NCBI GenBank assembly: GCA_037388985.1
Contig: JARRJQ010000059.1
Span: forward strand, 1-32,949
Origin: Desulfobacterales bacterium
GTDB taxonomy: Bacteria; Desulfobacterota; Desulfobacteria; Desulfobacterales; JAHEIW01
Length of the DNA: 32,949 bases
Direction: 5' to 3'
The position numbers and the translations under genes are program-made. The notes under the pieces were generated by a model. That model did not search any database, had not been told where the DNA came from, and saw only the letters and a list, made by a program, of their open reading frames with translations. Shown one piece after another: positions 8,844-32,949 of the stretch. Each line of letters begins with the position of its first letter. Position 1 is the stretch's first letter.

Positions 8844-8844
8844 A

Positions 8845-10951: not shown

Positions 10952-11147
10952 CAGCAGAAACACTCATTTGCAAAAAGATGCCGGATGCAAAAACCACCTT
11001 GGCCTTTTACTAGCTTTAAGGGTGATCGGGTCAAAATGATTTCGGTGAAATAAGGCTCCGCCAGATGCTAAAAACCCATTCTTATTACTTCATTCAAAAT
11101 CCGCAAAAAGATATCTTCATAGATATTTGAAATCAGGGGGGGACATC

Positions 11148-12728: not shown

Positions 12729-12793
12729 TTGAAACGACTGGATTTGGGTGGTTACCACAGAACACACAGAGTACACATGAAGAAAGGAAAATA

Positions 12794-14483: not shown

Positions 14484-14500
14484 ATATATATGAGGCAGTT

Positions 14501-15031
14501 ATGAGCAAGGCGATTAAACAGCAAATCCTGATCAGTGGGCTCGGCGGTCAGGGGGTTTTGTTCATCACGAGCCTTCTGGCGGAGGCTGCAATAAACAAAG
14601 GGTTGCCGGTGTTTACCTCGGATTTCAAGGTCGGTGATTTTTCAAGCCCGTTGATTCGGCCGTTTCAGGCAGACGGATTGCTGATCTTAAAAGATGAAAA
14701 TATCACCCAACACGGTTTCTTTTTAAAAAAAGAGGGCTGGGCTGTCGTAAACAGCAGTAATGATACAAATAGGGTGAAAATATCCCCAACAAATGTTATT
14801 GATGCGGACAGGCTTGCGCAGGAAATCTCAAATCCGAAGTCGGTTAATCTGATTGTACTGGGTTTTGCGCTGTTCAGGGCTGATCAAAACACAAAAGATA
14901 AAATAAATCTGTTTTGTTCGTTGACCGACATTAAAAAGGTTTTGAGAAAAAGATTCAACAGCCGCAAGAAACTGCTGGGCGCCTCGCTGCTGGCATTGGA
15001 AACGGGTTATAGACAAATTGTCCGTGGATAG
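14501..15031 (+). CDS. iorB: Indolepyruvate:ferredoxin oxidoreductase beta subunit-like, short and possibly defective
   Basis: N-terminus ILISGLGGQGVLFITSLLAEAAINKGLPV is typical of IorB / POR-gamma. The protein is 176 aa. From my recollection of the family, the segment normally carrying an HGM(A/S)QRGG-type motif is absent between ...VFTS and DFKVGDFSSPLI. Confidence 0.65.
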   Translation: MSKAIKQQILISGLGGQGVLFITSLLAEAAINKGLPVFTSDFKVGDFSSPLIRPFQADGLLILKDENITQHGFFLKKEGWAVVNSSNDTNRVKISPTNVIDADRLAQEISNPKSVNLIVLGFALFRADQNTKDKINLFCSLTDIKKVLRKRFNSRKKLLGASLLALETGYRQIVRG

Positions 15032-16479: not shown

Positions 16480-16541
16480 ATTTTTCAATTAATTTGATTC
16501 GTATCGCAAACAGGCATTTTAATTGTAAAGAGCCTTGATTC

Positions 16542-18104
16542 CTACAAAGGGATGTTGCCATGTCTCTTGTTCGGTGCAGGACGTTGTTTGTTGCGCAGCA
16601 TACGCAACGCCATGATCAACTGGGGCCGCGTCTCTTTGGGCTTGATCACCGTATCAACCAGCATGTTGGATGCGGCATGGTAAGGATTCGAATATTTATA
16701 ATCATAGGCTTCAATTTTTTGCTGACGAAGTTCTTCCGGATTTTCTGCTGCTTCAATTTCCCTGCGAAATATCAAATTCACCGCTGCCGTTGTGTCTAGT
16801 ACAACCAGCTGGGCAATGGGCCAGGCCAGCATGAGGTCAACTCCCATGCCCACACAACACATCGCCATCACTGCACCACCGTATTCTTTGCGCAATGCCA
16901 GAGTAATTTTGGGTACGGTTGCTTCTGAATAAGCGTAAAGCATTTTGGCTCCGTGACGAATAATACCGGCATGTTCCTGGGCCACCCCGGGGAAATAGCC
17001 GGGTACATCAACGAAATTGATCAAGGGGATATTAAAGGCGTCGCAAAATCGGATAAACCGGGCGGCTTTGTCAGACGCATTTACGTCCAGACAACCGGCT
17101 TTTATTCGTGGCTGATTGGCTATGATCCCGACGGTATGGCCATCCATGCGAGCAAAACCGATGATAATATTTAAGGCATATCGTCGCAGAACTTCAAAAA
17201 ACGTTCCTTGATCCACAACCCGTTCGATGACCTCATGCATGTCATAGGATTTTTTAAAATCAGCGGGAACGATCTCCTTGAGTTTTCGATCGATCCGTCC
17301 GGGGTCATCACCGGTTTCCACCACCGGCGGGTCTTCAGCATTGTTTGAAGGCAGATAGCCCAGTAATTTTTTAATAATTCCGATGCATTCCTCGTCACTG
17401 TCGGCAACAAAATGAGCTGTTCCGGTTATTTCGCTATGGACTTTGGCTCCGCCGAGTTCTTCCAGGCTGATGTCTTCGCCGGTTACCGACTTGATGATGC
17501 CCGGGCCGGTAATCACCATATGGCTTTTGCCTCTGATCATTACAATAAAATCGGTCAGCGCAGGCGAATATACGGCGACTCCAGCGCTGGAGCCCATCAT
17601 TCCCGTAATCTGAGGGATAAGCCCCGATGCAGCCGTATTGCGATAGAACATGCCGGCTACCCCTTTTGATGCGAAAAAACCTTCGTGCAGCCTGCCGCCG
17701 CCGGAATCATTTAATGCGACCAGGGGAGCTTTGACTTTGATGGCCTCGTCCATGATACGGCAAATTTTTTGTCCATGGATCGTGCCCACCGATCCGCCGA
17801 GAACCGTGACATCCTGCGAATAGGCAAATACTCGTCGGCCGTCAATGGTGCCATAGCCGGTTACCACACCATCGCCGGGCACCTTCTTTTCCTGCATTCC
17901 AAAGTCGACACACTGACTTTCGGCCAATTTGTTGACCTCTACAAAGCTGCCCGGGTCGAAAAGCAGATTTAAGCGCTCTCTGGCGGTCAATTTGCCTCTT
18001 TCATGGTGGCGATCGACTGTTTTTTGACCGCCGCCGATTTCGGCCTGTTGTTCAAGAGCCGCCAGTCTGTCCAGTTCACTTCGATGTGTTTTGCCTTCTG
18101 TCAT
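16542..18104 (-). CDS. Acyl-CoA carboxylase carboxyltransferase subunit (propionyl-CoA carboxylase beta / methylmalonyl-CoA decarboxylase alpha / transcarboxylase 12S family)
   Basis: 520 aa. Typical motifs: GGGQKTVDRHHERGKLTARERL, DFGMQEKKVPGDGVVTGYG, DSGGGRLHEG, and GIIANQP...GCLDVNASDKAARFIRFCDAFNIPL. Confidence 0.9.
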   Translation of the reverse strand: MTEGKTHRSELDRLAALEQQAEIGGGQKTVDRHHERGKLTARERLNLLFDPGSFVEVNKLAESQCVDFGMQEKKVPGDGVVTGYGTIDGRRVFAYSQDVTVLGGSVGTIHGQKICRIMDEAIKVKAPLVALNDSGGGRLHEGFFASKGVAGMFYRNTAASGLIPQITGMMGSSAGVAVYSPALTDFIVMIRGKSHMVITGPGIIKSVTGEDISLEELGGAKVHSEITGTAHFVADSDEECIGIIKKLLGYLPSNNAEDPPVVETGDDPGRIDRKLKEIVPADFKKSYDMHEVIERVVDQGTFFEVLRRYALNIIIGFARMDGHTVGIIANQPRIKAGCLDVNASDKAARFIRFCDAFNIPLINFVDVPGYFPGVAQEHAGIIRHGAKMLYAYSEATVPKITLALRKEYGGAVMAMCCVGMGVDLMLAWPIAQLVVLDTTAAVNLIFRREIEAAENPEELRQQKIEAYDYKYSNPYHAASNMLVDTVIKPKETRPQLIMALRMLRNKQRPAPNKRHGNIPL

Positions 18105-18215
18105 GATCGTTTATCCTGGCACGAATCGTTAATGGTTAATCGGGGGTTCAGACAAAGAAACAAAGCGATGTATTTCTTGTCATCTTTTAGCGGTATGCCA
18201 GCTTTACGTGCACCT

Positions 18216-18245
18216 TGTATACTGTATACAGGATAAAACTGTCAA
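18216..18245 (-). promoter_or_regulatory. Minus-strand promoter TTGACA-N18-TATACA overlapped by the palindrome TGTATAC-T-GTATACA
   Basis: The palindrome spans 18216-18230. The -35 is the complement of 18240-18245 and the -10 is the complement of 18216-18221. It lies about 110 nt upstream of the carboxyltransferase start (18104). The architecture is identical to the site at 21804-21835. Confidence 0.5.
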
Positions 18246-18409: not shown

Positions 18410-19207
18410 GTGGCAAAAAAGTTCCTGCTAACAAAGATCGAAAATCATATCTGTACCCTGACCCTCAGCCGGCCGGAAAAGAAGAATTCGCTTTCTCTCG
18501 ATTTGATCAAGCTGCTTCAATTAACTTTGCACGAAATAGCTGAAGACGATGGTGTACGAGTAGTTATTCTGCGCGGGGCAGGGGATGAGGCCTTTTGTTC
18601 GGGCTTTGATATCGGCTCGCTGCCCACAAAATCCAAAGAAGATGCAGATCAAAGATTAAAATCACTGGATCAGGTTGAGTCGTTATTACAAGTACTGATA
18701 CGCTTTCCATGCCCGGTGATTGCCATGCTGAATGGCTTTGCGTTCGGTCTGGGATGTGAGCTGGCGATGTGTTGCGACATTCGTATTGGTGCCGAGCACA
18801 TTCGCATGGGAGTGCCGCCGGCAAGGCTTGGCTTGGTTTACCCATGGACCGGATTGCAGCGTTTTATTCAGCGCATCGGGTTGCAAAGCACCAAAGAAAT
18901 ATTTTTTACCGGACGCACCTATGCCGGTCAGCGAATCAAAGAGCTTGGGTTGGTAGATTATCTTGTACCCGGCAATGAGCTGGAAGAATTTACCTATCGC
19001 TTAGCTGAGGAAATTGCTGGCAATGCACCGCTGGCGCTAAAAGGCATTAAAAAGGTCATCAATTTGCTAACCCAATCTGAGCGTCTGGATCAAACCCGGT
19101 CGAAAGAAGCACAGGCGATCTTCAAAGCATCCCTGTTGAGTGAAGATATGCGGGAAGGCCAGGCTGCCTTTCTGGAGAAACGCCAGCCACGCTTTAAGGG
19201 AAAATAA
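18410..19207 (+). CDS. Crotonase-superfamily protein lacking the second catalytic Glu (decarboxylase/isomerase-like rather than a canonical hydratase)
   Basis: Crotonase fold (VVILRGAGDEAFCSGFDI, GFAFGLGCELAMCCD, AFLEKRQPRF). Canonical hydratases have ...PE..G at the second catalytic position; this protein reads RMGVPPARLGLVYP. Confidence 0.8.
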   Translation: MAKKFLLTKIENHICTLTLSRPEKKNSLSLDLIKLLQLTLHEIAEDDGVRVVILRGAGDEAFCSGFDIGSLPTKSKEDADQRLKSLDQVESLLQVLIRFPCPVIAMLNGFAFGLGCELAMCCDIRIGAEHIRMGVPPARLGLVYPWTGLQRFIQRIGLQSTKEIFFTGRTYAGQRIKELGLVDYLVPGNELEEFTYRLAEEIAGNAPLALKGIKKVINLLTQSERLDQTRSKEAQAIFKASLLSEDMREGQAAFLEKRQPRFKGK

Positions 19208-21803: not shown

Positions 21804-21835
21804 TTGACATCTGTACTTTGTATACCGTATACAAA
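21804..21835 (+). promoter_or_regulatory. Promoter TTGACA-N18-TATACA overlapped by the palindrome TTTGTATAC-C-GTATACAAA
   Basis: TTGACA at 21804-21809, palindrome at 21817-21835, TATACA at 21828-21833. The preceding context TTGCTTGACA is identical to the site at 10907-10916. It lies about 90 nt upstream of the CoA-transferase start. Confidence 0.55.
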
Positions 21836-21924
21836 ATTGAATTCACACCTTATTTTGTCGATGATTCTGAAGCAAAAGACCTCACAATCTTTAACCCCCA
21901 ACTTTGATGCATATGGAGAGCCAC

Positions 21925-23115
21925 ATGGATTTTTTCAACGACCTCACCGTGCTTTCCCTGGAACAGGCGACTGTGCTGCCATATTTAACCTATCGACTGG
22001 CGCATGATGGCATGAATGTCATTCGGCTGGAACATCCCGTTTACGGGGATCCGAATCGATTTATCGGTGAAAATGTCCTCAATGAAAAACGGATGAACGC
22101 CTATTTTTTGTGTATCAATGCAGGTAAACAAGCGTTAACTTTAAATCTTGCTGAAGATGAGGGAGGCAAGATTTTTCGTTCTTTGATCAAAGAGCTTAAT
22201 GTGGACATCTTCGCAACCAATCAGCTGCCCAAAAATTACCAGAAACTGGGAATCGATTACGACAGTCTCAAGGCTTTGCGGCCGGACATCATCTGGCTGG
22301 GAGTAACGGGTTTCGGTCCCGACAGCAATGAAGCAGCCTACGACCCGATATTGCAGGCCCGATCCGGTTTGATGGAGCTGACTGGTGAAGCTGATGGAGA
22401 TCCTCAGATTATGGGCATCCCCTTGCCGGATATGGGCACCAGCGAGCATGCTTATGGTTTGCTGATGAAAGCCCTTTATAAACGTAAGGTCACCGGGGAA
22501 GGCAGCTGCATTAATCTGGCGATGTTCGAATCCACGGTATCTTGGCTGACCGTGCCGATTACCTTAACCGGCAGTTTCGGCAAAAGGATCAGCCGCCGGG
22601 GCAATACGCACGAATTTTTTGCGCCGGTCTCTGTCTATAAGACGCAAAACGGGTTTGTTTATCTGGCGGTTGGCAACGATCGTCAATGGAAAGCAATTGT
22701 ATCCCAGAAAATATTTAAAATCCTGGACAAGCAAGCGTATGAAAAAAATGAGGGCCGCATAAAAGATGTTAAAAATTTAAACCAGGCGATCAATGAAATT
22801 ACACGAAATCACAATTCCGAGGATCTAATCGAATTGTTCACCGCGATTACGGTTCCTATCAGCAAAATTCAAGCTGTCAACGAAGTTATCAAAGATCCGT
22901 TGGTTAAACGCAGGCTGTTGTTCGCCGAGGATCCAGTGACCGGCATGCGCATTACGCTGGCACCACCACCGAATATGACACCATTTCTTGAACGATCCAA
23001 TCGCATGCTTTCTTTCCCACCGCGATTCGGAGAACACAATGCAAAAATATACGGCAGCCGGCTGGGATATTCTGCTGATGATCTTGTCCGCTTGAAAGAA
23101 AATAGCATTATTTAA
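21925..23115 (+). CDS. Family III (CaiB/BaiF/Frc-type) CoA-transferase
   Basis: MDFFNDLTVLSLEQATVLPYLTYRLAHDGMNVIRLEHPVYGDPNR... and the active-site Asp region GIPLPDMGTSEHAYGLLMKAL. The start is uncertain: TTG 21904, ATG 21907, ATG 21913 and ATG 21925 are all in frame. 21925 is chosen because GGAG (21914-21917) precedes it. Confidence 0.85.
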   Translation: MDFFNDLTVLSLEQATVLPYLTYRLAHDGMNVIRLEHPVYGDPNRFIGENVLNEKRMNAYFLCINAGKQALTLNLAEDEGGKIFRSLIKELNVDIFATNQLPKNYQKLGIDYDSLKALRPDIIWLGVTGFGPDSNEAAYDPILQARSGLMELTGEADGDPQIMGIPLPDMGTSEHAYGLLMKALYKRKVTGEGSCINLAMFESTVSWLTVPITLTGSFGKRISRRGNTHEFFAPVSVYKTQNGFVYLAVGNDRQWKAIVSQKIFKILDKQAYEKNEGRIKDVKNLNQAINEITRNHNSEDLIELFTAITVPISKIQAVNEVIKDPLVKRRLLFAEDPVTGMRITLAPPPNMTPFLERSNRMLSFPPRFGEHNAKIYGSRLGYSADDLVRLKENSII

Positions 23116-23147
23116 GCCATGATTTAATTGAATTTAAGGCAGTTATT

Positions 23148-23753
23148 ATGAAAAAAAGGGCCTCGTTAAATGATCTTGATTTTGGGCCGCTTCAGGCCTT
23201 TCAAGAGCGAAAATCCTTAGGTGAGCATGTTTTTGAGAGCCTAAAACAGGCGATTATCAGAGGCAAAATATCCGCTAATGAATGGCTGGTCGAAAGTCAC
23301 ATTGCTGAAACCCTTGGAATCAGCCGGACACCCGTACGCGAGGCTATTCACAAACTTGAACGCGAAGGGCTCATCGAGCGACAACCTCGTGGCGGGTTTA
23401 CCGTGCTAGGGCTGAATCGAAATGACATCGAAGAAACTTTCGGCCTTCGTAGTTTACTGGAGGGCTATGCTGCAAGGCTCGCCGCCGTTAAACATAAACC
23501 GTTCGAACTGAAATCATTGGAGAAGAAAAGTGATCAAATTTATCGATATAGAGAGATGATTCTTAAAGAGCAAGAATTTGCCTCGACCAGCAATTTGGAC
23601 CACAAAAAGATGTTGAAATATATTCGGAAGCGGGATGCTAAAGGTGCAGAGCGAGCAGTAAAGGATCATATTTTAAGGGGGCAGGAAATGGTTTTGAAAG
23701 AATATGACAAACAACGATTGGATCAAGCCGAGCAAGTATTGAGGAACGATTGA
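23148..23753 (+). CDS. GntR-family transcriptional regulator (FadR/FCD-like C-terminal domain)
   Basis: Winged-HTH segment LVESHIAETLGISRTPVREAIHKLEREGLIE, followed by an all-helical C-terminal domain. Its stop (23751-23753) abuts the ATG of the next gene at 23755. Confidence 0.85.
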   Translation: MKKRASLNDLDFGPLQAFQERKSLGEHVFESLKQAIIRGKISANEWLVESHIAETLGISRTPVREAIHKLEREGLIERQPRGGFTVLGLNRNDIEETFGLRSLLEGYAARLAAVKHKPFELKSLEKKSDQIYRYREMILKEQEFASTSNLDHKKMLKYIRKRDAKGAERAVKDHILRGQEMVLKEYDKQRLDQAEQVLRND

Positions 23754-23754
23754 A

Positions 23755-24150
23755 ATGGCGGAAAAGAAAATAAAAATATTGATCGGTAAACCCGGGCTGG
23801 ACGGGCATGATCGCGGAGCCAAAGTAATCGCTCTAGCTTTGAGGGATGCCGGCATGGAAGTTATTTATACAGGGCTGCACCAGACAGTTGAGCAGATTGT
23901 TAAAGCCGCTATGCAGGAAGCGGTTGATATTGTCGGATTGAGCATCATGTCCGGCGCTCATCTTCCGATCTGCCGCAAGATTTTACAGATGATGAAAAGA
24001 GAAGGCATTCAAGAAATCCCGGTTGTGGTCGGCGGGGTCATTCCCAAACAGGATATTCCCAAGTTGAAGAAAGTGGGAATCGCCGCAGTTTTTCCCGGTG
24101 GAACGGCTTTTGATGAAATCGTTAGCGGCATCAAAAAAGTCGTTAAGTAA
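23755..24150 (+). CDS. B12-binding small subunit of an acyl-CoA mutase
   Basis: IGKPGLDGHDRGAKVIALALRDAGMEVIY (DxHxxG cobalamin motif), GLSIMSGAH, and VVVGGVIP. Confidence 0.9.
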   Translation: MAEKKIKILIGKPGLDGHDRGAKVIALALRDAGMEVIYTGLHQTVEQIVKAAMQEAVDIVGLSIMSGAHLPICRKILQMMKREGIQEIPVVVGGVIPKQDIPKLKKVGIAAVFPGGTAFDEIVSGIKKVVK

Positions 24151-24154
24151 ATAC

Positions 24155-24271
24155 AAAATGCCTAAAATTGAGGAATCCTGTCCATTTTAGTAAAGTTAAT
24201 AAAAAGAATGGAGCTTCGCGACACCATAACTTTAGGCACTTTAGCTCATTTTAGTTCATTTTAGGCATTTT
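24155..24271. repeat. 14-bp inverted repeat pair enclosing ~10-bp-phased CAYTTTAG repeats, in the spacer between the mutase subunits
   Basis: AAAATGCCTAAAAT (24155-24168) and its exact reverse complement ATTTTAGGCATTTT (24258-24271). CACTTTAG/CATTTTAG/CATTTTAG/CATTTTAA begin at 24237, 24247, 24257 and 24266, with a further CATTTTAG at 24183. Confidence 0.5.
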
Positions 24272-24301
24272 AATTTTTAGAGCTTTTTTTAAGGAGCAAA
24301 C

Positions 24302-25936
24302 ATGGGAGTAGCAAAATACGTTAAAGATGAAAAAGACGCCATCAAAGAGGTTATCTATCAATCCGGAATCAAGGTAAAGCCGGTTTATACCCCTGAAGAT
24401 CTCGAAAAAATCGGCTTTGATTATGAAAATGATTTAGGCGATCCCGGGGAATATCCGTTCACCCGCAACTTGCATCCACAAGGGTATCGATCCCGTGCTT
24501 GGACGACTCGCCAGTATACGGGTTTTGGCACCCCTCAGGAAACCAATGAGCGATTCAAGTTAATGATTTCGCACGGACAAACGGGCCTGAATGTGGCCTT
24601 CGATTTACCGACTCAGATGGGATATGATTCGGATACTCCCGAAGCTTTGGGGGAAGTCGGCCGGGTGGGTATGGCCGTCGATTCACTGCGCGATTTTGAA
24701 ATTGCATTCCAAGACATTCCGCTGGATCGCATCGGGTCGGGACTAACGATCAATGCGGTTGCATCGATTATGCTGGCAATGTATCAGACCGTGGCGGAAA
24801 AATTCGGTTACCCGAAAGAAAGGATCAGCGCGACACCGCAAAACGACATTCTTAAAGAAATGATCGGACGCGGGGCCTGGATATTTCCGGTAGAGCATGC
24901 TGTGAGGCTGGTGGGTGACAGCATTGAATATTCGGTTAAAGAGCTTCCGCGATGCAATCCGGTCAGCATCTGCGGCTATCACATCCGGGAATCCGGAGCG
25001 AACCCGGCTCAGGAAATTGCCTGCGCTTTCGAAATCGCCAAAACCTATATCGATAATGTCAAAGCCAGGGGGATGGCAGTCGAAGATTTCGTCGGAAGTT
25101 TTTCTTTTAACCTCAATGTATTCGGCAACCTGAGGGAACAAATCGCTAAATTTCGGGCCGCTCGCAAGCTCTGGGCGAAAATGCTCAAAGAAGAATATGG
25201 CGTTCAGGATAAAAAAATGCTCTTTCTGAGTGGACTTTTCGGTGGTGGCGGCAGCGGATTGACCAAAAGTCAGCCGGAAAACAACATCATGCGTGGCGCG
25301 TTTTATGCCCTGGGAGCTGCGCTGAGCGGTGCACAGACCATCGCCCTTTGTTCTATTGACGAAGCTTACACAATTCCGACACCCCGGGCAGCCTTGCTGT
25401 CTTTACGCACTCTGGAAATCATCATGGATGAGGTCGGGTTGCGCGACACGGTGGATCCGCTGGCAGGTTCCTACTTTATTGAGACTCTGACCAAACAGAT
25501 GGAAGGAAAGATCCTGGATGAAATGAAACAAATTCAGCAGGTCGGGGGTATGGTTCACGCCGTTGCTACCGGCTTTATCCAGCGAAAAGTTGCCCAACAG
25601 GCCTATGAATACGAAAAAGGGCTTCAAAAAGGCGAGTACATAAAAGTCGGCGTCAACAAATATACTGATGGGACAGAAGATCAAACCGATGTCGAACTTC
25701 ACGAATACAATGATCAATGGGCCGATAAACAGGTTGCGGGCCTAAAAGAGCTTCGTAAAACCCGTGATAATCGCGAAGTGTCACGGTTGCTGAAAGAATT
25801 GGAAAAGACAGCACGCAGCCAAAAAAATGTAATGCCTATTCTGGCGGATTGTTGCCGAGCATATGCAACAGTGGGAGAAATGGCCGGCGTGTTTCGAAAT
25901 GCCTTCGGCGAATGGCAAGAACCCAGCATTTTCTGA
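24302..25936 (+). CDS. Acyl-CoA mutase large (catalytic) subunit, divergent member of the methylmalonyl-CoA mutase family
   Basis: YPFTRNLHPQGYRSRAWTTRQYTGFGT, GQTGLNVAFDLPTQMGYDSD, PQNDILKEMIGRGAWIFP, ICGYHIRESGA, and C-terminal ATVGEMAGVF. RBS AAGGAG lies upstream of the ATG at 24302. Confidence 0.9.
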   Translation: MGVAKYVKDEKDAIKEVIYQSGIKVKPVYTPEDLEKIGFDYENDLGDPGEYPFTRNLHPQGYRSRAWTTRQYTGFGTPQETNERFKLMISHGQTGLNVAFDLPTQMGYDSDTPEALGEVGRVGMAVDSLRDFEIAFQDIPLDRIGSGLTINAVASIMLAMYQTVAEKFGYPKERISATPQNDILKEMIGRGAWIFPVEHAVRLVGDSIEYSVKELPRCNPVSICGYHIRESGANPAQEIACAFEIAKTYIDNVKARGMAVEDFVGSFSFNLNVFGNLREQIAKFRAARKLWAKMLKEEYGVQDKKMLFLSGLFGGGGSGLTKSQPENNIMRGAFYALGAALSGAQTIALCSIDEAYTIPTPRAALLSLRTLEIIMDEVGLRDTVDPLAGSYFIETLTKQMEGKILDEMKQIQQVGGMVHAVATGFIQRKVAQQAYEYEKGLQKGEYIKVGVNKYTDGTEDQTDVELHEYNDQWADKQVAGLKELRKTRDNREVSRLLKELEKTARSQKNVMPILADCCRAYATVGEMAGVFRNAFGEWQEPSIF

Positions 25937-25941
25937 AGCGG

Positions 25942-26367
25942 GAATTCGGAATGCGGAATGCGGAATATAGAAGGCGGAATACGGAAGGAAGAATAATGCC
26001 TGATAAAGATTTGAAAGAAAGAACAAAGAAGTTCGCCCTAAAAATAATAAAACTGGCTGCATCTCCTCCTCGTACAAGGGAAGCTGATATTATCGGCAGA
26101 CAATTGTTAAAAGCAGGAACCTCCGTTGGTGCTAATTATAGAGAAGCCAACCGCGCCAGGTCAAAAGCAGAATTTAGAGCCAAAATTGGCATAGTTGAGC
26201 AAGAATCGGATGAATCCCTTTATTGGTTAGAATTATTGAAAGAGTCCGGAATTACAAAAGGCAGACTTTTAGAGGAACTATTGATAGAAGCTGACGAATT
26301 AGTAGCAATATTCACAACAATCGGCAAACAATCAAAATTATATTTCCGCATTCCGAGTTCCGAATTC
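25942..26367. mobile_element. Inverted-repeat-bounded cassette carrying a four-helix-bundle gene (intervening-sequence-like insertion)
   Basis: IR-L is GAATTCGGAATGCGGAATGCGGAA (25942-25965). IR-R is TTCCGCATTCCGAGTTCCGAATTC (26344-26367). They are reverse complements at 22 of 24 positions. IR-L is the start of a run of about seven CGGAATG-type heptamers (25947-25995) that also supplies the RBS. Confidence 0.5.
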
Positions 26368-26415
26368 ATGAGAGGAGGAGCGATTGAGCGACGGATCCTA
26401 TCGTCTGGGTTGTGA
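25996..26415 (+). CDS. Four-helix-bundle protein (TIGR02436; 23S rRNA intervening-sequence protein / Avd-like family)
   Basis: MPDKDLKERTKKFALKIIKL...IGRQLLKAGTSVGANYREANRARSKAEF..KIGIVEQESDESLYWLELL is characteristic of this family. The track ORF (from 25849) overlaps the mutase gene. The ATG at 25996 follows GGAAGGA. The 3' tail (RIPSSEF...) is encoded by the repeat and overlaps the hyuA start. Confidence 0.8.
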   Translation: MPDKDLKERTKKFALKIIKLAASPPRTREADIIGRQLLKAGTSVGANYREANRARSKAEFRAKIGIVEQESDESLYWLELLKESGITKGRLLEELLIEADELVAIFTTIGKQSKLYFRIPSSEFMRGGAIERRILSSGL

Positions 26416-28498
26416 TATCGGCGGAACTTTTACGGATTTTGTTCTGGTCAATGATGAAACCGGAGAATTTCAGATCAATAAATGTCTGACCACTCCCAAA
26501 GACCCGTCGGATGCGGTCGAAGAGGGCATCCGGGGCTTGCTGGAACGCCTTCCTGGATTCGTTCCCCAAATAGATGAATTTATTCATGGCACGACCCTGG
26601 TGATCAACGCTATTATCGAAAGAAAGGGAGCCAAAACCGGATTGATCACCACCAGAGGATTTCGGGATGTGCTGGAGCTTGGCCGGGAGATTCGATATGA
26701 TGCTTATGATATTTTTGCCGAATACCCTAAACCCCTCGTTCCCCGATCACTTCGCACAGAGGTATTCGAACGGATCACCGCTGACGGGCGCGTGATTGTG
26801 CAGCTGAAACCTGAAGAGGTCAGCGAGGTGCTCAATGAAATTCGTCAATTGGGAATCGAATCTTTGGCGGTCTGCCTGATTCACTCTTACGAGAATCCGA
26901 TACACGAAATGCAGATAAAGGAAATCGTGAACAAAGAAGCCCCTGGCCTATCCTTGTCGATTTCCTACGAGGTGCTCCCCCAGATCCGTGAATATGAAAG
27001 AAGCTGCACCACGGCAACCAATGCGTATGTCAAACCGATTACCGCCAGGTATCTGGCCAAGCTTTCAGCCAGATTGGAATCCCTTGGTTTTAAGGGCAAG
27101 CTTTTTATCATGCTTTCCAGCGGTGGAATCACATCCGTAGAAACCGCACGCGAATATCCGGTCAGAATCATAGAATCAGGACCCACAGCCGCAGTGATTG
27201 CTTCACAGCATTACGGCAAGATGTTTCAGATCAAAGATATGTTTTGCTTCGACATGGGAGGTACTACCGCAAAATCCTGCCTGATCCAGAAAGGGCAGGC
27301 AGGGCTGGTATCCACCTTTGAAGTCGGCCGTATTCAACGCTTCAAGAAAGGTAGTGGTCTGCCTATCCAGGTGCCGGTGGTTGATTTGATGGAAATTGGT
27401 GCCGGTGGGGGTAGCATTGCCCGCATGAGCAAAATGGGTCTCTTGCAGGTCGGCCCTGAAAGCGCCGGAGCCGACCCTGGGCCGGCCTGTTACGGTCGCG
27501 GCGGTAAGGATCCAACCGTGACGGATGCGGATTTGATGCTGGGATATTTGGATCCGAATTATTTTCTCGGTGGGAGCATGCCGCTGAACCGGGCGGCGGC
27601 CGAACAAGCGATTGAAAAAAAGCTCGCTCAACCTCTTGGAACCTCTGCAACTGAAGCCGCTTTCGGCATTCATGATCTGATCAATGAGACCATGGCGGCA
27701 GCGGCTAAAACCCATATTGCCGAAAAAGGCGGCAATCCGAATATCGTCACCATTTCTGCATTTGGGGGGGCAGGGCCGGTGCATGCATATGGGCTGGCCA
27801 AAAAAATCGGAGCACCCCGCATCCTCGTTCCGCCGCTTGCCGGAGTCGGCTCCGCACTTGGTTTTTTTACCGCACCAGTGGCATTTGACCTGAGTCGAAG
27901 TCATCGGGTCAGTTTGGAAGAGGCCGATTTCGAGCAGATCGAAGGGTTGTTTAAAGAACTGGAGCAGGAAGGGGCTGCCGTTCTGCAGGCAGCGAAGAAA
28001 AATCAGAAAATAAAATTTGAGCGCACCTTGATGATGCGTTTTGTGGGCCAAGGAGCCGAAACCGATCTTGCCCTTAAAAACAGACCATTTGATCAATTGG
28101 AAAAAGGGCAGGTTAGAAAATTGTTTGATGAAGTTTATCAGAAGCTCTATGGTCGGACTTATGCGGAAACGCCGGTTGAATTCGTCACCTTTAAAGTCCG
28201 CGCCAGTTTGCCGCAACGACCTTTCCAGATTCCACCGTTAAAAAATGCAGGGAAAACCATTGCCGATTGCAAAAAAGGCGAACGCCTGGCCTTTTCTCTT
28301 GTAAAAAGACAATACATGCCTTTTGCGGTATACGATCGTTTTAGTCTTTTTCCCGGTGCAACGCTCGGCGGCCCGGCCATTATCGAAGAAAAAGAGTCAA
28401 CGATTATTATGGGAGAAGACGCCAGTGCATCGGTTGATGAATATGGATTTGTTTGGATCAATTTGAATGGCGAAGTCGGAATGGGGAATGCGGAATGA
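26384..28498 (+). CDS. hyuA: Hydantoinase A / oxoprolinase A-family ATP-dependent subunit
   Basis: YRLGCDIGGTFTDFVL, GTTLVINAIIERKGAKTGLITTRGFRDVLE, FDMGGTTAKS, and GADPGPACYGRGG. TTG start at 26384 with AGGAGG (26373-26378) 5 nt upstream. Confidence 0.9.
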   Translation: MSDGSYRLGCDIGGTFTDFVLVNDETGEFQINKCLTTPKDPSDAVEEGIRGLLERLPGFVPQIDEFIHGTTLVINAIIERKGAKTGLITTRGFRDVLELGREIRYDAYDIFAEYPKPLVPRSLRTEVFERITADGRVIVQLKPEEVSEVLNEIRQLGIESLAVCLIHSYENPIHEMQIKEIVNKEAPGLSLSISYEVLPQIREYERSCTTATNAYVKPITARYLAKLSARLESLGFKGKLFIMLSSGGITSVETAREYPVRIIESGPTAAVIASQHYGKMFQIKDMFCFDMGGTTAKSCLIQKGQAGLVSTFEVGRIQRFKKGSGLPIQVPVVDLMEIGAGGGSIARMSKMGLLQVGPESAGADPGPACYGRGGKDPTVTDADLMLGYLDPNYFLGGSMPLNRAAAEQAIEKKLAQPLGTSATEAAFGIHDLINETMAAAAKTHIAEKGGNPNIVTISAFGGAGPVHAYGLAKKIGAPRILVPPLAGVGSALGFFTAPVAFDLSRSHRVSLEEADFEQIEGLFKELEQEGAAVLQAAKKNQKIKFERTLMMRFVGQGAETDLALKNRPFDQLEKGQVRKLFDEVYQKLYGRTYAETPVEFVTFKVRASLPQRPFQIPPLKNAGKTIADCKKGERLAFSLVKRQYMPFAVYDRFSLFPGATLGGPAIIEEKESTIIMGEDASASVDEYGFVWINLNGEVGMGNAE

Positions 28499-28534
28499 TT
28501 TGAATGGGGAAGGTGAGATGTGGAATGCGGAATA
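28477..28534. repeat. Array of degenerate CGGAATG heptamers spanning the hyuA stop codon
   Basis: CGGAATG GGGAATG CGGAATG ... GGGAAGG TGAGATG TGGAATG CGGAATA. The hyuA stop TGA (28496-28498) lies inside a unit. An inverted, related array lies at 28628-28664. Confidence 0.55.
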
Positions 28535-28597
28535 ATTTAAAAATCCTTTTCATTTACCCAAAGTTTATAGGTTTAATTCTAAGGAGACTTATAAAGT

Positions 28598-30376
28598 ATG
28601 CAAAAAAACGGTAACGGCAAGGATGATCCGAATTCCGGTTTCCGAATTTCGAATTCACGCTTCGATCCGATAACGCTGGAAATTTTTTGGCGCCGTTTAA
28701 TCTCTATCGTTGATGAAGCGGATGCCTCTGTGGCCAGAACCGCCTTTTCAAGTCTCTTGCGCGATGCGCATGACTATACCTGTATGTTTACCGACAGCCG
28801 GGGACAGGAACTGGTTCAGGGAACTTTCTGTACGCCGGGTCAGGCCGGAGCCATGGCTTTGGGCATTAAAAACATCATTCGTTCGATTCCATTAGAACAG
28901 TATCGGCCGGGAGACGTATTTATTGTCAATGACCCCTGGTTGCTGGCCGGCCATCTAAACGATGTCTGCGTGTTGAGTCCTATATTTTATAAAGAAAAAC
29001 CGATTGCCTTTACCGCCTGCGTCTTTCATCATTCAGACATCGGGGGGCGGGTGGCTTCCGATAACCGGCAGGTCTACGAAGAAGGGCTGTTCATCCCGCC
29101 GATTAAACTGTATGATGCCGGTGTGCTGAATGAGTCGGTATTGAGAATGATACGCTGGAATGTCAGGACCCCCGAAGAAGTGACGGGGGATATCCGCTCC
29201 CAGGTGGCCGCTAACCACGTATGCTCGCAAAAAGTCATCGAAATGCTGGCAGACGAGGGCCTGGATACTCTGGATGATCTGGCGGAAGAAATTATTGAGC
29301 GAACTGAAAAGAGCATGCGAACTGCCATCGCTAAAATACCTGATGGGATATACCCTTATGAAGGCCTTATTGAAGGAGCCGGCAAGCGAAAAGATATTTC
29401 CATCAAATTAAGCGTGCAGGTCAAGGGCAGCGATATCCAGATCGATTTTGAAGGAACATCTCCTCAGGTCGATTGGGGTGGGAATGTCGTCTATAATTTC
29501 ACATATGCGTATGTTTTTATGGCGATTAAGAGTGCGTTTGATCCGGATATTCCCATCAATGAAGGCGCTATTCGGCCCGTAAAAATGAGTGCACCAGAAG
29601 GCAGCGTGGTCAATTGCAGATTTCCGGCCGCGGTTGCCGCCCGCATGCAGATCGGCCATTTTATGACCGAGATGGTGTTTAAAGCTTTATCAGGAGCAAC
29701 ACCGGATAACATCATTGCCGAAAGTGGGGGAACACCGGCTCAAACCAATATTTTTTACGGAAAACGCTTCAACGGAAAGCCATGGTTGACCATGATTATT
29801 CGGGGCGGCGGAATGGGCGCCAGCAGTAAAATGGATGGGCACCATTGCGCCATCTTTCCGGCCAACGGCGCCAACACGCCTGTGGAAATTTTTGAAAGCG
29901 ATACCCCCTTGATTGTACAGGAGCGCAGTCTGTTATGCGATTCTGGCGGTCCGGGCAAAAAGCGCGGCGGACTCGGAAGAAAATTTGTCATCCGGATCCC
30001 GGACGATGAATTTGCTCCTCTGCCACCGACGACAATTGCCATTCAGGCTGGCAGATTTCGATACCCTCCCGGAGGTTTGTTCAAAGGTGGCAGCGGAAAC
30101 AAAGCTCAATTCCTTGTCAATACTGACGAGGGGGATCCCAGCGGATTGACCCTTTGTGAATCCGGAGATGTCATTCATTTTCACAGTGCCGGCGGAGGCG
30201 GATTCGGCGATCCGCTGGAACGAGAGCCGGCAGCTGTTGAACAGGATGTTATCAACGAATATGTGAGTATTGAACAAGCGCGGCGTCACTACGGTGTGGT
30301 CATCGATCCGCAAACGCTGAAAGTTGATTCGGGGAAAACTCAAAAGCTGCGCACATCGCGGAAGCAAAAAGGATAG
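28598..30376 (+). CDS. hyuB: Hydantoinase B / oxoprolinase B-family subunit
   Basis: DPITLEIFWRRLISIVDEA, RDAHDYTCMFTD, NDPWLLAGHLNDV, and GGGGFGDPLEREP. The N-terminal ~24 aa (MQKNGNGKDDPNSGFRISNSRF) precede the usual family N-terminus and are partly encoded by repeat sequence. Confidence 0.9.
   Translation: MQKNGNGKDDPNSGFRISNSRFDPITLEIFWRRLISIVDEADASVARTAFSSLLRDAHDYTCMFTDSRGQELVQGTFCTPGQAGAMALGIKNIIRSIPLEQYRPGDVFIVNDPWLLAGHLNDVCVLSPIFYKEKPIAFTACVFHHSDIGGRVASDNRQVYEEGLFIPPIKLYDAGVLNESVLRMIRWNVRTPEEVTGDIRSQVAANHVCSQKVIEMLADEGLDTLDDLAEEIIERTEKSMRTAIAKIPDGIYPYEGLIEGAGKRKDISIKLSVQVKGSDIQIDFEGTSPQVDWGGNVVYNFTYAYVFMAIKSAFDPDIPINEGAIRPVKMSAPEGSVVNCRFPAAVAARMQIGHFMTEMVFKALSGATPDNIIAESGGTPAQTNIFYGKRFNGKPWLTMIIRGGGMGASSKMDGHHCAIFPANGANTPVEIFESDTPLIVQERSLLCDSGGPGKKRGGLGRKFVIRIPDDEFAPLPPTTIAIQAGRFRYPPGGLFKGGSGNKAQFLVNTDEGDPSGLTLCESGDVIHFHSAGGGGFGDPLEREPAAVEQDVINEYVSIEQARRHYGVVIDPQTLKVDSGKTQKLRTSRKQKG
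28628..28664. repeat. Inverted heptamer array inside the 5' end of hyuB
   Basis: CCGAATTCCGGTTTCCGAATTTCGAATTCACGCTTCG. Its reverse complement reads CGAAGCG..CGAAATT CGGAAAC CGGAATT CGG, so it is an imperfect inverted partner of 28477-28534. Confidence 0.5.
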
Positions 30377-30473
30377 ATGTCGCCGGAGCCGTTTTAAATG
30401 AGTAGCCCTTGATTGAGCCAGCCCAATGGCAAAACGTTTAAACCATTTCAGAAGTTTTTGAGGGAGACAGATT

Positions 30474-31766
30474 ATGTCCCAAACCTTTATGCCGTCATTT
30501 CAAAATATGGATCAGCTCAAAGCACACCAGTTAAAAGGCCTTCAGTGGACAGTTAATCATGCCTATCAGGGCTCTCGTTTCTATCGGCAAAGTCTGGATG
30601 CTTCCGGCGTAAGACCAGACATGATCCGATCCCTGGAAGATATCCAGAGACTGCCCTTTACCAAAGCCGATGACCTGCGGGACGGGTATCCCTTTCCATT
30701 GTTATCAGTTCCTCAATCCCAGGTGGTGCGGATTCACGCTTCTTCAGGGACGACGGGTAAACGAAAGATCCTGTCCTATACGCAGAAAGATATCGATGAT
30801 TGGATTTATTTTTTTGCCCGCTGCTATGAAATGGCCGGTCTCACACGCGAAGACCGGGTACAGATTGCCGTAGGATATGGGATTTGGACTGCCGGCGCGG
30901 GATTTCAGCTTGGCTGTGAAAAATTCGGCGCCATGGCCGTTCCGGTCGGCCCCGGCAATGTGGACATGCAATGCCAGTTTCTGGTGGACTTGCAATCCAC
31001 TGCCATGTGCTGCACTGCATCGATGGGTCTATTGATGGCTGAAGAAGTCCAGCGCAGGGGTCTAAAGGATAAAATCACCCTTAAAAAAATGATTTTCGGT
31101 TCAGAACGCAGCAGTGATGCCATGCGCAAACGGATAAAAGATCTGTTAGGTCTGGAAGACATGTTCGACATTCCCGGTTTGACGGAGCTTTACGGACCGG
31201 GTACCGGACTGGATTGCTATAAGCATGAAGGCGTTCATTACTGGGCCGATTACTATATCATCGAAATTCTTGATCCGGCTACCCTCGAATCCGTGCCGGC
31301 AGGTGAAACCGGTGAAATGGTAGTCACAACCTTGTGTAAAGAGGCCGCTCCTTTGATCCGCTATCGCACCCGGGATCTGACGCGTTTGATCGATCATCCA
31401 TGTTCATGCGGCAATATTTTGCCGATGCACGACAGAATTTTGGGGCGGTCCGATGATATGATCATTTTCCGGGCCGTTAACATATACCCCGGGCAGATCG
31501 ATCAAGTGCTCTCAAGCGTTGCGGATGCCGGTTGTGAATACCAGATTCATCTGGATCGCAAAACAGATGGAAAAGATTACATGACTGTGCGGCTCGAATG
31601 CAGCGAAAAGTTCGATGCTTCCGGCAAAACTGAGCTGGCCAAAAAAGTCAGTCAAGAAATTAAGAATAAAGTTATGGTCAGTGCTCAAGTCGAAGTAGTG
31701 GATTACGGTTCGCTGCCAAGATCGGAAAGGAAGACGAAACGGTTTTTCGATAATCGACCTCAATAA
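30474..31766 (+). CDS. paaK: Phenylacetate-CoA ligase-like adenylate-forming enzyme (PaaK / F390 synthetase family)
   Basis: LPFTKADDLRDGYPFPLLSVP...VRIHASSGTTGKRKILSYTQKDIDDW, and RYRTRDLTR. 430 aa, the typical PaaK size. The actual substrate is unknown. Confidence 0.8.
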   Translation: MSQTFMPSFQNMDQLKAHQLKGLQWTVNHAYQGSRFYRQSLDASGVRPDMIRSLEDIQRLPFTKADDLRDGYPFPLLSVPQSQVVRIHASSGTTGKRKILSYTQKDIDDWIYFFARCYEMAGLTREDRVQIAVGYGIWTAGAGFQLGCEKFGAMAVPVGPGNVDMQCQFLVDLQSTAMCCTASMGLLMAEEVQRRGLKDKITLKKMIFGSERSSDAMRKRIKDLLGLEDMFDIPGLTELYGPGTGLDCYKHEGVHYWADYYIIEILDPATLESVPAGETGEMVVTTLCKEAAPLIRYRTRDLTRLIDHPCSCGNILPMHDRILGRSDDMIIFRAVNIYPGQIDQVLSSVADAGCEYQIHLDRKTDGKDYMTVRLECSEKFDASGKTELAKKVSQEIKNKVMVSAQVEVVDYGSLPRSERKTKRFFDNRPQ

Positions 31767-31829
31767 CGATTCTATGACTCTAGAATTAAATAATGACTTC
31801 GTCTGGACAAAGAGCGATAAATTACAAAT

Positions 31830-31959
31830 AAATTCGAAATTCGAATATCGAAACGCGAAACAAATCCGAATATCGAATGATTTAAATCCAAAAGTTCTGA
31901 GCATTTGAATTTAGAATTTTTGACATTGTTTCGTATTTCGAAATTCGTGCTTCGAATTT
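31830..31959. repeat. MITE/REP-like element bounded by inverted CGAAAT-type repeat arms
   Basis: Left arm AAATTCGAAATTCGAATATCGAAACGCGAAACAA (31830-31863). Right arm TTGTTTCGTATTTCGAAATTCGTGCTTCGAATTT (31927-31959). The interior is related to 16313-16479 in reverse orientation. Confidence 0.6.
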
Positions 31960-32049
31960 AACGGATTGGTAAAACTTTTGTTTAAAACAATCATAAATAT
32001 TTAAACTCGTGTTCACTTAGTATAGGAACAGAAGAAGGAGGATGTTGAG

Positions 32050-32949
32050 ATGTTGGAAAAAGCGTATATACCCTATGGAGGATACTACAGTTCGCCTTTT
32101 TGCCGCTGGCAGGGAAGTCTGGCCAATGAAAACGCAATTACCTTGGGAGCCGCCACCGCCAAACGTTGGATGGCTCACAAGAAATGGGATCCGAAAATAA
32201 TCGATTATCTCGTTTTCGGAATTACCATTCATCAGCCGCATGGTTTTTACGGAAGCACATGGGCGGCGGCTATGATGGGATGTGCAGATATTCCGGGAAT
32301 ACTCATCAGTCAAGCCTGCACCACCTCCACGACCTGCATCTGGCAGGCAAGCATGGGCGTTGAAACGGGCCTCTTTGAAAATTGCTTCTGCCTGATGACT
32401 GACCGCTGTTCAAACGGCCCGCACGCGATATGGCCAAACCCGCTGGGGCCCGGCGGCCAGGTTATCTATGAAGATTGGCTGATGGACAATTTCGGCAAAG
32501 ATCCCTGGGCCGGAGGGGCTATGATTCAAACTGCGGAAAATGTTGCCAAAGAAGCCGGCATCACGCGCAAACAGTGCGATGCGCTTACCCTGCGGCGGTA
32601 CCAGCAGTACCAGGATTCTTTGGCCGACGACCGTGCCTTTCAAAAGCGGTATATGTTTCCGGTGGAGATCGCGGTTTCGAAAATAAAGACTATCCTGGTG
32701 GAAGAAGACGAAGGCATCATCGAAAGCACTGCCGAAGGATTGGCCGGACTGAAACCGGTCATTCCCGAGGGTGTGCACACTTACGGAGCGCAATCGCATC
32801 CGGCTGACGGAAACTGCGCAGTGGCTGTCACAACCCGTGAAAAGGCGAGGCAGTTGAGTTCCGACCCGAATATCGAAATTCAGGTGATTTCTTACGGCTA
32901 TGCGCGGGCCAAAAAAGCTTTCATGGCGGCAGCGGTTTACCCCGCCGTG
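32050..32949 (+). CDS. Thiolase-family protein (acetyl-CoA C-acyltransferase-like); 3' end runs off the window
   Basis: Absent from the ORF track because it has no in-window stop. The ATG at 32050 is preceded by GAAGGAGGA (32034-32042). 300 uninterrupted codons: MLEKAYIPYGGYYSSPFCRWQGSLANENAITLGAATAKRW...ILISQACTTSTTCIWQA (nucleophile Cys context)...YGAQSHPADGNCAVAVTTREKA. Confidence 0.8.
   Translation, partial: MLEKAYIPYGGYYSSPFCRWQGSLANENAITLGAATAKRWMAHKKWDPKIIDYLVFGITIHQPHGFYGSTWAAAMMGCADIPGILISQACTTSTTCIWQASMGVETGLFENCFCLMTDRCSNGPHAIWPNPLGPGGQVIYEDWLMDNFGKDPWAGGAMIQTAENVAKEAGITRKQCDALTLRRYQQYQDSLADDRAFQKRYMFPVEIAVSKIKTILVEEDEGIIESTAEGLAGLKPVIPEGVHTYGAQSHPADGNCAVAVTTREKARQLSSDPNIEIQVISYGYARAKKAFMAAAVYPAV

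Follow-up and report, generated by a model that had tools for sequence, protein, structure and literature searches.

Which compound is degraded by a set of co-directional, CoA-dependent enzymes in a Desulfobacterales genome, and how would a carboxyl group be removed once a substituted malonyl-CoA has been formed? The question is raised by contig JARRJQ010000059.1 of assembly GCA_037388985.1, a stretch of 32,949 nucleotides (nt) from a Desulfobacterales bacterium, which we analysed over its whole length and call the window. A first-pass annotation, made from the letters alone, had proposed a candidate undescribed catabolic pathway here, encoded by an operon with a family III CoA-transferase, a divergent B12 mutase, a hydantoinase-type enzyme, a PaaK-type ligase and a thiolase. 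Comparison with published pathways and with related loci places the operon differently: it is best described as a variant of the known iaa pathway of anaerobic indole-3-acetate degradation, because most of the features that define iaa clusters are present and one of them, the dehydrogenase IaaF, is not. What is new is that iaaF and its electron transfer flavoprotein (ETF) genes etfBA are missing from the locus and that a module of carboxyltransferase, acyl-CoA dehydrogenase (ACAD) and crotonase-like genes is linked to the operon by a shared operator; the assignment of the core genes to iaa would be ordinary.

Gene content of the operon

Genes were called from a listing of open reading frames (ORFs) together with Pfam scans, in which ORFs of at least 100 amino acids (aa) were covered across the window. 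The operon begins with the CoA-transferase gene:

21913..23115, plus strand: family III CoA-transferase, IaaL-like, of phenylsuccinyl-CoA transferase type (Pfam CoA_transf_3, E = 2e-74)
23148..23753, plus strand: GntR/FCD regulator (Pfam GntR and FCD)
23755..24150, plus strand: B12-binding small subunit of the mutase, IaaH-like (Pfam B12-binding)
24302..25936, plus strand: mutase large subunit, IaaG-type (Pfam MM_CoA_mutase)
26384..28498, plus strand: hydantoinase/oxoprolinase A subunit (HyuA), predicted lactamase alpha (Pfam Hydantoinase A)
28598..30376, plus strand: hydantoinase B subunit (HyuB), predicted lactamase beta (Pfam Hydantoinase B)
30474..31766, plus strand: PaaK-type aryl-acetate CoA ligase (Pfam AMP-binding and AMP-binding_C_2)
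32050..32949, plus strand: thiolase, N-terminal part, cut by the window end (Pfam Thiolase_N)

The start codon of the CoA-transferase is ambiguous, positions 21904, 21913 and 21925 all being possible. From this gene to the window end all genes lie on the plus strand, and gntR is separated from the gene of the B12-binding subunit by 1 nt; the first-pass annotation had described both features correctly. Its remark that the other junctions are filled by repeats rather than by terminators is right in so far as the scan of intergenic regions found no terminator-like site and the junctions do hold repeats, but the junction between mutase and HyuA also contains an ORF of 139 aa. Promoter and terminator scans gave the same counts as shuffled sequence and are uninformative about operon boundaries. 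An Rfam scan of the whole window had no match, and thus no cobalamin riboswitch. Within the window and among the scanned ORFs there is no glycyl-radical enzyme, no MeaB/ArgK chaperone and no acetone-carboxylase gamma subunit, as had been claimed, and no biotinyl-lysine motif occurs in any of its six frames. None of the enzymes of the window reaches the cutoff of an NCBIfam equivalog model, and no direct functional name comes from these models.

The operon runs past the window end in the metagenome contigs L001 and L169-L172, which are 99.9% identical to the window, and in the related loci L003, L173 and L174. The thiolase is complete in L001 (396 aa). In the three related loci it is followed by three subunits of a molybdenum hydroxylase and then by the tripartite ATP-independent periplasmic (TRAP) transporter DctPQM. 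Judged from all these contigs, the full operon has about 14 genes, of which the window appears to hold the 5´ two-thirds.

Relationship to the iaa cluster of Aromatoleum

In the Aromatoleum iaa operon, IaaB is the indoleacetate-CoA ligase, IaaL the phenylsuccinyl-CoA transferase and IaaGH the B12 mutase, while IaaF is a decarboxylating benzylmalonyl-CoA dehydrogenase whose hallmark is a GGG replacing the YEG motif (Schühle 2021, PMC8360864). The HyuAB-type enzymes of the pathway have been described as 2-oxoindoleacetyl-CoA gamma-lactamases (PMC5214803). Predicted iaa operons of sulfate reducers, Desulfatiglans anilini and others, have ETF genes beside iaaF (PMC8360864).

A genome scan with the mutase alignment did not place Aromatoleum among the matches listed; the locus was reached through the IaaF-like ACADs of loci that were listed. 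A profile built from those of L005, L010, L011 and L012 retrieves Aromatoleum proteins named benzylmalonyl-CoA dehydrogenase, and these led to the A. evansii locus L084. Its order is HAD/ECH (a fusion of 3-hydroxyacyl-CoA dehydrogenase and enoyl-CoA hydratase), TetR, GntR/FCD, thiolase, ANL-type ligase, HyuA, HyuB, IaaF, IaaH, IaaG, molybdenum hydroxylase (FAD, FeS and Mo subunits), IaaL and a binding protein. Products of the window compare with this locus as follows:

Mutase large subunit against IaaG: 53% identity
B12-binding small subunit against IaaH: 45% identity
Thiolase against the thiolase of the iaa locus: 45% identity
HAD/ECH against the fusion gene flanking the iaa locus: 59% identity
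CoA-transferase against IaaL: 36% identity over 397 aa, 265 bits (best solved structure, 167 bits)
HyuA against IaaC: 36% identity
HyuB against IaaE: 29% identity
N-terminal domain of the GntR regulator against the GntR of the locus: 37% identity
PaaK-type ligase: no match in the locus

The features by which an iaa cluster is known are thus largely there: a mutase of the IaaGH clade, HyuAB directly 3´ of it, an IaaL-like transferase, HAD/ECH, a thiolase and a GntR/FCD regulator. The three-subunit molybdenum hydroxylase lies outside the window (its FAD subunit follows the thiolase in L001, all three subunits do so in L003, L173 and L174), and its large subunit in L003 shares about 49% identity with large subunits of Aromatoleum type (L011). 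IaaF was not found at the locus, the sole ACAD of the window having YEG. We regard it as likely, with good confidence, that the region is the Desulfobacterales version of the iaa operon, serving the anaerobic degradation of the auxin indole-3-acetate. The published pathway (PMC8360864; PMC5214803), with orthologues in the A. evansii locus and IaaF in the sister operon L166 described below, accounts for the gene set, and the idea of an undescribed pathway is given up on the very ground that its proposers had named as decisive against it. Much of their chemical logic survives, since lactam opening by HyuAB, activation by ligase or CoA-transferase, B12-dependent rearrangement, decarboxylation, beta-oxidation and thiolysis match the iaa pathway.

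Common to the window lineage and to the A. aromaticum and A. evansii clusters are the GntR/FCD regulator, the thiolase, a CoA ligase step, HyuA and HyuB, a split B12 mutase with the same active-site motifs, the molybdenum hydroxylase, the family III transferase, the flanking HAD/ECH and solute uptake. The gene order differs from A. evansii. The ligase is of PaaK type (430 aa) in the window and of ANL type (IaaB, 510 aa) in A. evansii; uptake relies on a TRAP transporter in the window lineage, and on a periplasmic binding protein with an ATP-binding cassette (ABC) system in Aromatoleum. Unlike Aromatoleum, the window has no IaaF, and its carboxyltransferase, YEG-containing ACAD and crotonase-like protein share an operator. 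Its operon also holds a mobile four-helix-bundle element and repeats resembling miniature inverted-repeat transposable elements (MITEs), which the Aromatoleum operon does not.

The large subunit of the mutase is closer to IaaG than to mutases in loci without iaa-type neighbours, with which identity is about 45% or less among the matches listed. The same matches fall into two upper tiers, 71-79% identity for L004-L006 and 52-58% for L007-L012. Wherever the identity is at least 52% and the contig reaches beyond the mutase gene, the listed loci have a B12 subunit and a family III CoA-transferase and/or HyuA-HyuB; several loci of the two top tiers also carry the molybdenum hydroxylase, and a GGG-type ACAD adjoins the mutase in L005, L010, L011 and L012. 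Tyr89, Arg207, Tyr243 and His244 are kept (numbering of P. shermanii methylmalonyl-CoA mutase, MCM), Arg207 being the residue that binds the substrate carboxylate. GGGG(S/G)GLT stands in place of HxQTxGW and ALCSxDEAYTIP in place of LHTNSxDEA; together with CGYHIRESGA, these motifs are common to every iaa-cluster mutase aligned and absent from MCM, HcmA and two aligned mutases of non-iaa loci. The enzyme is predicted to be of the (2-aminophenyl)succinyl-CoA/(2-aminobenzyl)malonyl-CoA mutase type. Methylmalonyl-CoA mutase proper was rejected, as GGGGSGLT and ALCS stand where HxQTxGW and LHTNS would be expected and model NF006944 gives 436 bits against a cutoff of 876.

For HyuAB, an alternative would be that they form a ketone carboxylase resembling acetone or acetophenone carboxylase and open an undescribed pathway, with the mutase rearrangement coming next. 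They do match acetophenone carboxylase models, weakly. The gamma subunit is absent from the window, however; the two-subunit amidohydrolase type (PMC5214803) agrees with the subunit sizes and the gene order, the best NCBIfam model for HyuA is that of caprolactamase alpha, a lactam hydrolase (below cutoff), and the iaa pathway explains the whole gene set. By the criteria of PMC5214803, acetone/acetophenone carboxylase was rejected, the scores of the Apc models falling well short of their cutoffs and being lower than that of the caprolactamase model. We consider such a carboxylase very improbable, and the ketone carboxylation put forward in the first-pass annotation finds no support. HyuAB are predicted to be an ATP-dependent 2-oxoindoleacetyl-CoA gamma-lactamase, while their strict orthology to IaaC/IaaE is uncertain.

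HyuA and HyuB are 61% and 59% identical to their counterparts in L011, a proteobacterial cluster otherwise of Aromatoleum type (2919-6704). There, IaaF (73%), IaaG (75%) and IaaL (65%) are Aromatoleum-like, yet HyuAB belong to the sub-lineage of the window and are encoded on the opposite strand. Because L011 combines the two in this way, the two lactamase lineages appear to be interchangeable in iaa clusters. In L173 (8166-9892), HyuB is split into two ORFs of 257 and 318 aa, probably by a frameshift or a sequencing error.

The differences from Aromatoleum might also mean that the operon serves a related substrate, namely another aryl-acetate, an oxindole-type lactam, or indolepyruvate or indolelactate that derive from tryptophan and enter solely via an oxidoreductase. 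The PaaK-type rather than IaaB-type ligase, HyuAB from another sub-lineage than IaaCE, and the conserved neighbourhood of IorAB and a 2-hydroxyacid dehydrogenase would all agree with this. On the other hand, molybdenum hydroxylase, lactamase, CoA-transferase, mutase and beta-oxidation genes are all common to the characterised iaa cluster, the active-site motifs of the mutase are those of IaaG, and HyuAB of the window type also occur in the otherwise Aromatoleum-type cluster L011. A substrate other than indoleacetate therefore seems unlikely to us.

A sister operon that contains IaaF

L166, a metagenome locus found via its IaaF, shares the gene order of the window, except that etfB, etfA and an iaaF with GGG stand after the CoA-transferase gene and ahead of gntR. 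Identity to the window is 76-79% for the CoA-transferase, mutase large subunit, HyuA, HyuB and ligase (CoA-transferase 76%, ligase 77%, HyuB 78%), 63% for the B12 subunit, 47% for the GntR regulator and 68% for HAD/ECH. Genes for HAD/ECH, 2-hydroxyacid dehydrogenase and IorA are again neighbours. L166 and L005 represent an iaa operon of sulfate-reducer type, in which the CoA-transferase gene is followed, in the same order, by gntR and the genes of the B12 subunit, mutase, HyuA, HyuB, PaaK-type ligase and molybdenum hydroxylase. The etfB-etfA-iaaF genes of L166 are lacking in the window, L003, L173, L174 and the carboxyltransferase-centred loci, whereas the thiolase gene inside the operon and the operator-linked carboxyltransferase/ACAD/ECH module are features of the window type. 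The shared order and the identity of 76-79% argue that the window operon is the sulfate-reducer-type iaa operon minus etfBA-iaaF. Its ligase, found likewise in the IaaF-containing operon, would be the functional counterpart of IaaB and probably not its orthologue.

The ligase of L003 is 88% identical to that of the window, and the ligases of L003, L173 and L174 together span 81-88%. The operon is abundant in marine and estuarine metagenomes, where the ligase is represented by more than 120 protein clusters at 80% identity or above. Sediments and rhizospheres commonly contain auxin and other indoles derived from tryptophan. The abundance of the operon suggests that Desulfobacterales may be significant anaerobic consumers of indoleacetate.

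A further homologous cluster is found in a 7.2-Mb Desulfobacterales metagenome-assembled genome (CP070771.1, L002, positions 4518-12890). HyuB, PaaK-type ligase and thiolase homologues are 76-83% identical there, and genes for a GntR regulator, a short-chain dehydrogenase/reductase and an ABC transporter lie alongside; HyuA, mutase and CoA-transferase are not found in it. This cluster may be a rearranged or degenerate relative of the operon.

A shared operator

The first-pass annotation had tied the operon to two other units through a shared operator, and this tie is real. The 17-nt palindrome TTGTATACCGTATACAA has two exact copies, at 10922-10938 and 21818-21834, and a third copy with 2 mismatches at 18215-18231. 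Chance alone would give 0.02 matches, and the observed count was reached in 0 of 100 shuffles. The sites and the units that they connect are:

21804..21834, plus strand: TTGACA promoter-like hexamer (21804-21809) and operator (21818-21834), upstream of the CoA-transferase operon
18215..18231: operator copy with 2 mismatches, in the intergenic region of the divergent carboxyltransferase and ECH genes, kept there in many relatives
10922..10938: exact operator copy, following a TTGACA at 10911-10916, in the gap that separates the HAD/ECH gene from the PGDH-like gene, conserved in relatives
8845..10827, minus strand: 3-hydroxyacyl-CoA dehydrogenase/enoyl-CoA hydratase fusion, HAD/ECH (Pfam)
11127..15031, plus strand: 2-hydroxyacid dehydrogenase resembling phosphoglycerate dehydrogenase (PGDH-like, with ACT domain) and IorA/IorB-type 2-oxoacid:ferredoxin oxidoreductase (Pfam)
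15085..16233, minus strand: ACAD of Bcd/CarC type with canonical YEG, not IaaF (Pfam and motif)
16542..18104, minus strand: carboxyltransferase of PccB/MmdA/12S type (Pfam Carboxyl_trans)
18410..19207, plus strand: crotonase-family protein (Pfam ECH_1)

The palindrome lies about 100-170 nt 5´ of the CoA-transferase gene in L003, L173, L174 and L166, and it is found at the same three intergenic positions in about 30 related loci (at 2543, 9889 and 19484 in L101, for example, and at 2075, 2134 and 11205 in L165). Over 89 distinct sequence contexts, conservation reaches at least 90% in the GTATAC-N-GTATAC core and 30-40% in the flanks, and this supports a single GntR/FCD regulon. The probable binder is the GntR/FCD protein of the operon, for which this conserved operator would give a clean definition of the regulon.

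The PGDH-like and Ior genes sit between two operator copies, and the TTGACA hexamer with its operator points towards them. With IorAB and the 2-hydroxyacid dehydrogenase being conserved neighbours in both operon types, IorAB might supply indoleacetyl-CoA from indolepyruvate, which is speculation on our part. A fused Ior-like gene of 1123 aa follows IaaL in L010, a Flavobacteriales locus (12792-16163).

A possible decarboxylation module in place of IaaF

The second part of our question concerns the benzylmalonyl-CoA step. How IaaF is re-oxidised, and by what means this step proceeds in strict anaerobes, is left open in PMC8360864. The carboxyltransferase of the window scores 631 bits against PDB 1vrg and 116 bits against glutaconyl-CoA decarboxylase (733 bits with TIGR01117 mmdA, below cutoff), and is predicted to act on a 2-substituted malonyl-CoA, as PccB/MmdA/12S-type enzymes do, and not on glutaconyl-CoA. 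Bcd and the caffeyl-CoA reductase CarC are relatives of the ACAD. The crotonase-family protein reads VPPARLG where hydratases have PE, so that the second catalytic Glu is presumably lost (we take the rat enoyl-CoA hydratase consensus as reference); decarboxylase, isomerase and atypical hydratase are its possible roles. Glutaconyl-CoA decarboxylase combined with a non-decarboxylating glutaryl-CoA dehydrogenase, as in the lower benzoyl-CoA pathway, was considered and rejected on the 631 against 116 bits (GcdA) and on the ACAD score of 293 bits against the GlutCoADH_Des cutoff of 470.

A metagenome scan centred on the carboxyltransferase yielded 80 loci of 75-95% identity, the reach around each locus being about 10 kb on either side. 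The longer ones show HAD/ECH divergent from 2-hydroxyacid dehydrogenase-IorA-IorB, further on ACAD-carboxyltransferase divergent from ECH, and then CoA-transferase-gntR-B12 subunit-mutase. The operator-linked module of carboxyltransferase, YEG ACAD and crotonase-like protein is conserved over about 30 related loci. No GGG-type ACAD was found in the window, in L001, L003, L006, L173 or L174, or in the 80 carboxyltransferase-centred loci, and no IaaF-linked ETF in the window or those 80 loci, a lone ETF pair (L090) standing beside an ordinary YEG ACAD. ACAD-ETF pairs of L090, L138 and other loci were considered as divergent IaaF candidates and dismissed, all of them having YEG or VEG. The pattern is complementary: the IaaF/ETF operons L166 and L005 show no carboxyltransferase module in range, and the loci with the module show no IaaF.

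From the co-regulation and from this complementary distribution of the two gene sets, we suggest that the carboxyltransferase (or the crotonase-like protein) and the YEG ACAD replace IaaF/ETF, with a non-oxidative decarboxylation followed by a dehydrogenation; we would give this something near an even chance. The wider proposal is more tentative and falls somewhat short of that: a widespread lineage of Desulfobacterales would have exchanged IaaF and ETF for a decarboxylation like that of the alkane pathway (by carboxyltransferase or crotonase) and an ACAD of Bcd/CarC type, all within one GntR/FCD regulon that includes an indolepyruvate entry via Ior. Such a lineage, dropping IaaF and ETF and co-regulating a carboxyltransferase with an ordinary ACAD, would be a natural experiment on the benzylmalonyl-CoA step and offers a testable alternative chemistry. 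If the proposal is true, the carboxyltransferase route may involve a biotin carrier and thereby be linked to energy conservation or transcarboxylation. We found no paper in the open-access literature on an IaaF-less variant with a carboxyltransferase module.

The model for such chemistry is anaerobic alkane degradation, where (1-methylalkyl)succinyl-CoA is converted to (2-methylalkyl)malonyl-CoA and then to acyl-CoA (Wilkes 2002, cited in PMC8360864). In both cases a B12 mutase would yield a 2-substituted malonyl-CoA, and in the alkane route a carboxyltransferase-type enzyme is reportedly thought to decarboxylate it before beta-oxidation; the likeness is one of function. The two differ in that the alkane route starts with fumarate addition and the present one with the opening of a lactam ring, and no glycyl-radical enzyme is found here. 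One could go further and take the substrate itself to be an alkyl- or arylsuccinyl-CoA that arises, as when hydrocarbons are degraded anaerobically, from addition to fumarate, since the pairing of mutase and carboxyltransferase resembles the proposed route via alkylmalonyl-CoA mentioned in PMC8360864. Glycyl-radical enzymes are absent not only from the window but, as far as gene calls and family matches show, from the related loci that were examined, a molybdenum hydroxylase and a lactamase have no role in that route, and the mutase signature is that of IaaG. We find this hardly credible, and the alkyl- or arylsuccinate alternative of the first-pass annotation is likewise left without support.

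A more serious alternative accepts an operon of iaa type but gives the module no part at the benzylmalonyl-CoA step. IaaF and ETF would then be encoded elsewhere in the genome, and the module would handle, for example, side products of propionyl-/methylmalonyl-CoA type or a parallel substrate fed by IorAB. The high scores of the carboxyltransferase against generic PccB/MmdA structures, the lack of a biotin carrier gene nearby, the lack of direct adjacency between module and operon in L173, and the view of about 10 kb on each side of every locus are all compatible with it. It does not readily explain why the operator is kept between carboxyltransferase and ECH genes in many relatives, or why the IaaF/ETF operons (L166, L005) and the module loci are mutually complementary. 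We put its chance clearly below one half, while treating it as a real contender.

Several points weigh against an iaa operon with a replaced IaaF. Firstly, the link of the Desulfobacterales operon to indoleacetate is one of homology and synteny, and the iaa operons of sulfate reducers are themselves only predicted. Secondly, identity to Aromatoleum IaaC and IaaE is only 36% for HyuA and 29% for HyuB, and the ligase, with no detectable match to the 510-aa ANL-type ligase of A. evansii, is probably no orthologue of the characterised IaaB. Thirdly, no biotin carrier is encoded in the window to partner the carboxyltransferase, whose partner would therefore have to come from elsewhere; genes for IaaF and ETF could likewise lie in other parts of the genome, the search having covered the locus; and L173 has no carboxyltransferase module within 1.3 kb 5´ of the operon. 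Finally, the regulator and IorA carry deletions, and the window copy may be partly defective or mis-assembled.

Proposed pathway

A possible course of the pathway takes the order of its steps from the Aromatoleum model, with indoleacetate as the presumed substrate. The TRAP transporter, encoded past the window (L003, L173, L174), would take up indoleacetate, and the PaaK-type ligase would convert it to indoleacetyl-CoA, to which IorAB may add indoleacetyl-CoA from indolepyruvate. The three-subunit molybdenum hydroxylase, whose genes lie just beyond the window end, would oxidise C2 to give 2-oxoindoleacetyl-CoA, whose gamma-lactam would be opened by HyuAB with ATP to (2-aminophenyl)succinyl-CoA; hydroxylation and lactam opening are reportedly the early steps of the iaa pathway. 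The family III CoA-transferase would then shift CoA between the two carboxyl groups and the B12 mutase would produce (2-aminobenzyl)malonyl-CoA. At this point, loss of the carboxyl group and oxidation of the side chain would lead to 2-aminocinnamoyl-CoA, presumably by the carboxyltransferase (or crotonase-like protein) and the YEG ACAD instead of IaaF/ETF. HAD/ECH and thiolase would finally release 2-aminobenzoyl-CoA and acetyl-CoA. The GntR/FCD protein of the operon would repress the three promoter regions through the GTATAC-N-GTATAC palindrome.

Inserted elements, deletions and other genes

The junctions of the operon and of the module contain several inserted elements, found by Pfam and repeat searches:

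25942..26415, plus strand: 23S_rRNA_IVP four-helix-bundle ORF of 139 aa (25997-26415), with 24-nt inverted repeats at 25942-25965 and 26344-26367
31827-31960: AU-rich palindromic TTCGAAATTCGAATATCGAAA-type element, MITE-like, at the ligase-thiolase junction
16310-16480: related TTCGAAATTCGAATATCGAAA-type copy at the ACAD-carboxyltransferase junction

The inverted repeats around the IVP ORF are 24 nt long and of GAATTCGGAATGCGGAA type. This element is absent from L003 (ligase identity 88%), where a spacer of only 225 nt separates mutase and hyuA. Related GGAATG repeats fill the HyuA-HyuB junction (28447-28534). As RNA, the ligase-thiolase repeat would fold into a long AU-rich hairpin (-43 kcal/mol, z = -3.7). 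The ACAD-carboxyltransferase junction measures 308 nt in the window and 161 nt in near-identical contigs.

The independent metagenome contigs L169-L172 and L001, 99.7-100% identical to the window, served as reference for deletions. Five were seen in the window:

About 8989: about 51 nt, inside HAD/ECH
About 13430: about 134 nt, inside IorA; the frameshift splits an ORF that is intact at 601 aa in near-identical contigs
About 14620: about 42 nt, inside IorB
20365/20366: about 45 nt, inside a GNAT gene
About 23535: 129 nt, in frame, inside the GntR/FCD regulator; 43 aa of the FCD effector domain are lost, leaving 201 of 244 aa

Their junctions show microhomology of 1-12 nt, and they are either real micro-deletions of the strain or assembly artefacts.

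At the other end of the window, the minus strand encodes a signalling set (1339-4794) composed of an FHA-domain adenylate/guanylate cyclase, a PP2C phosphatase and a Ser/Thr kinase with a Cache-like N-terminal region, which appears to be unrelated to the catabolic regulon.

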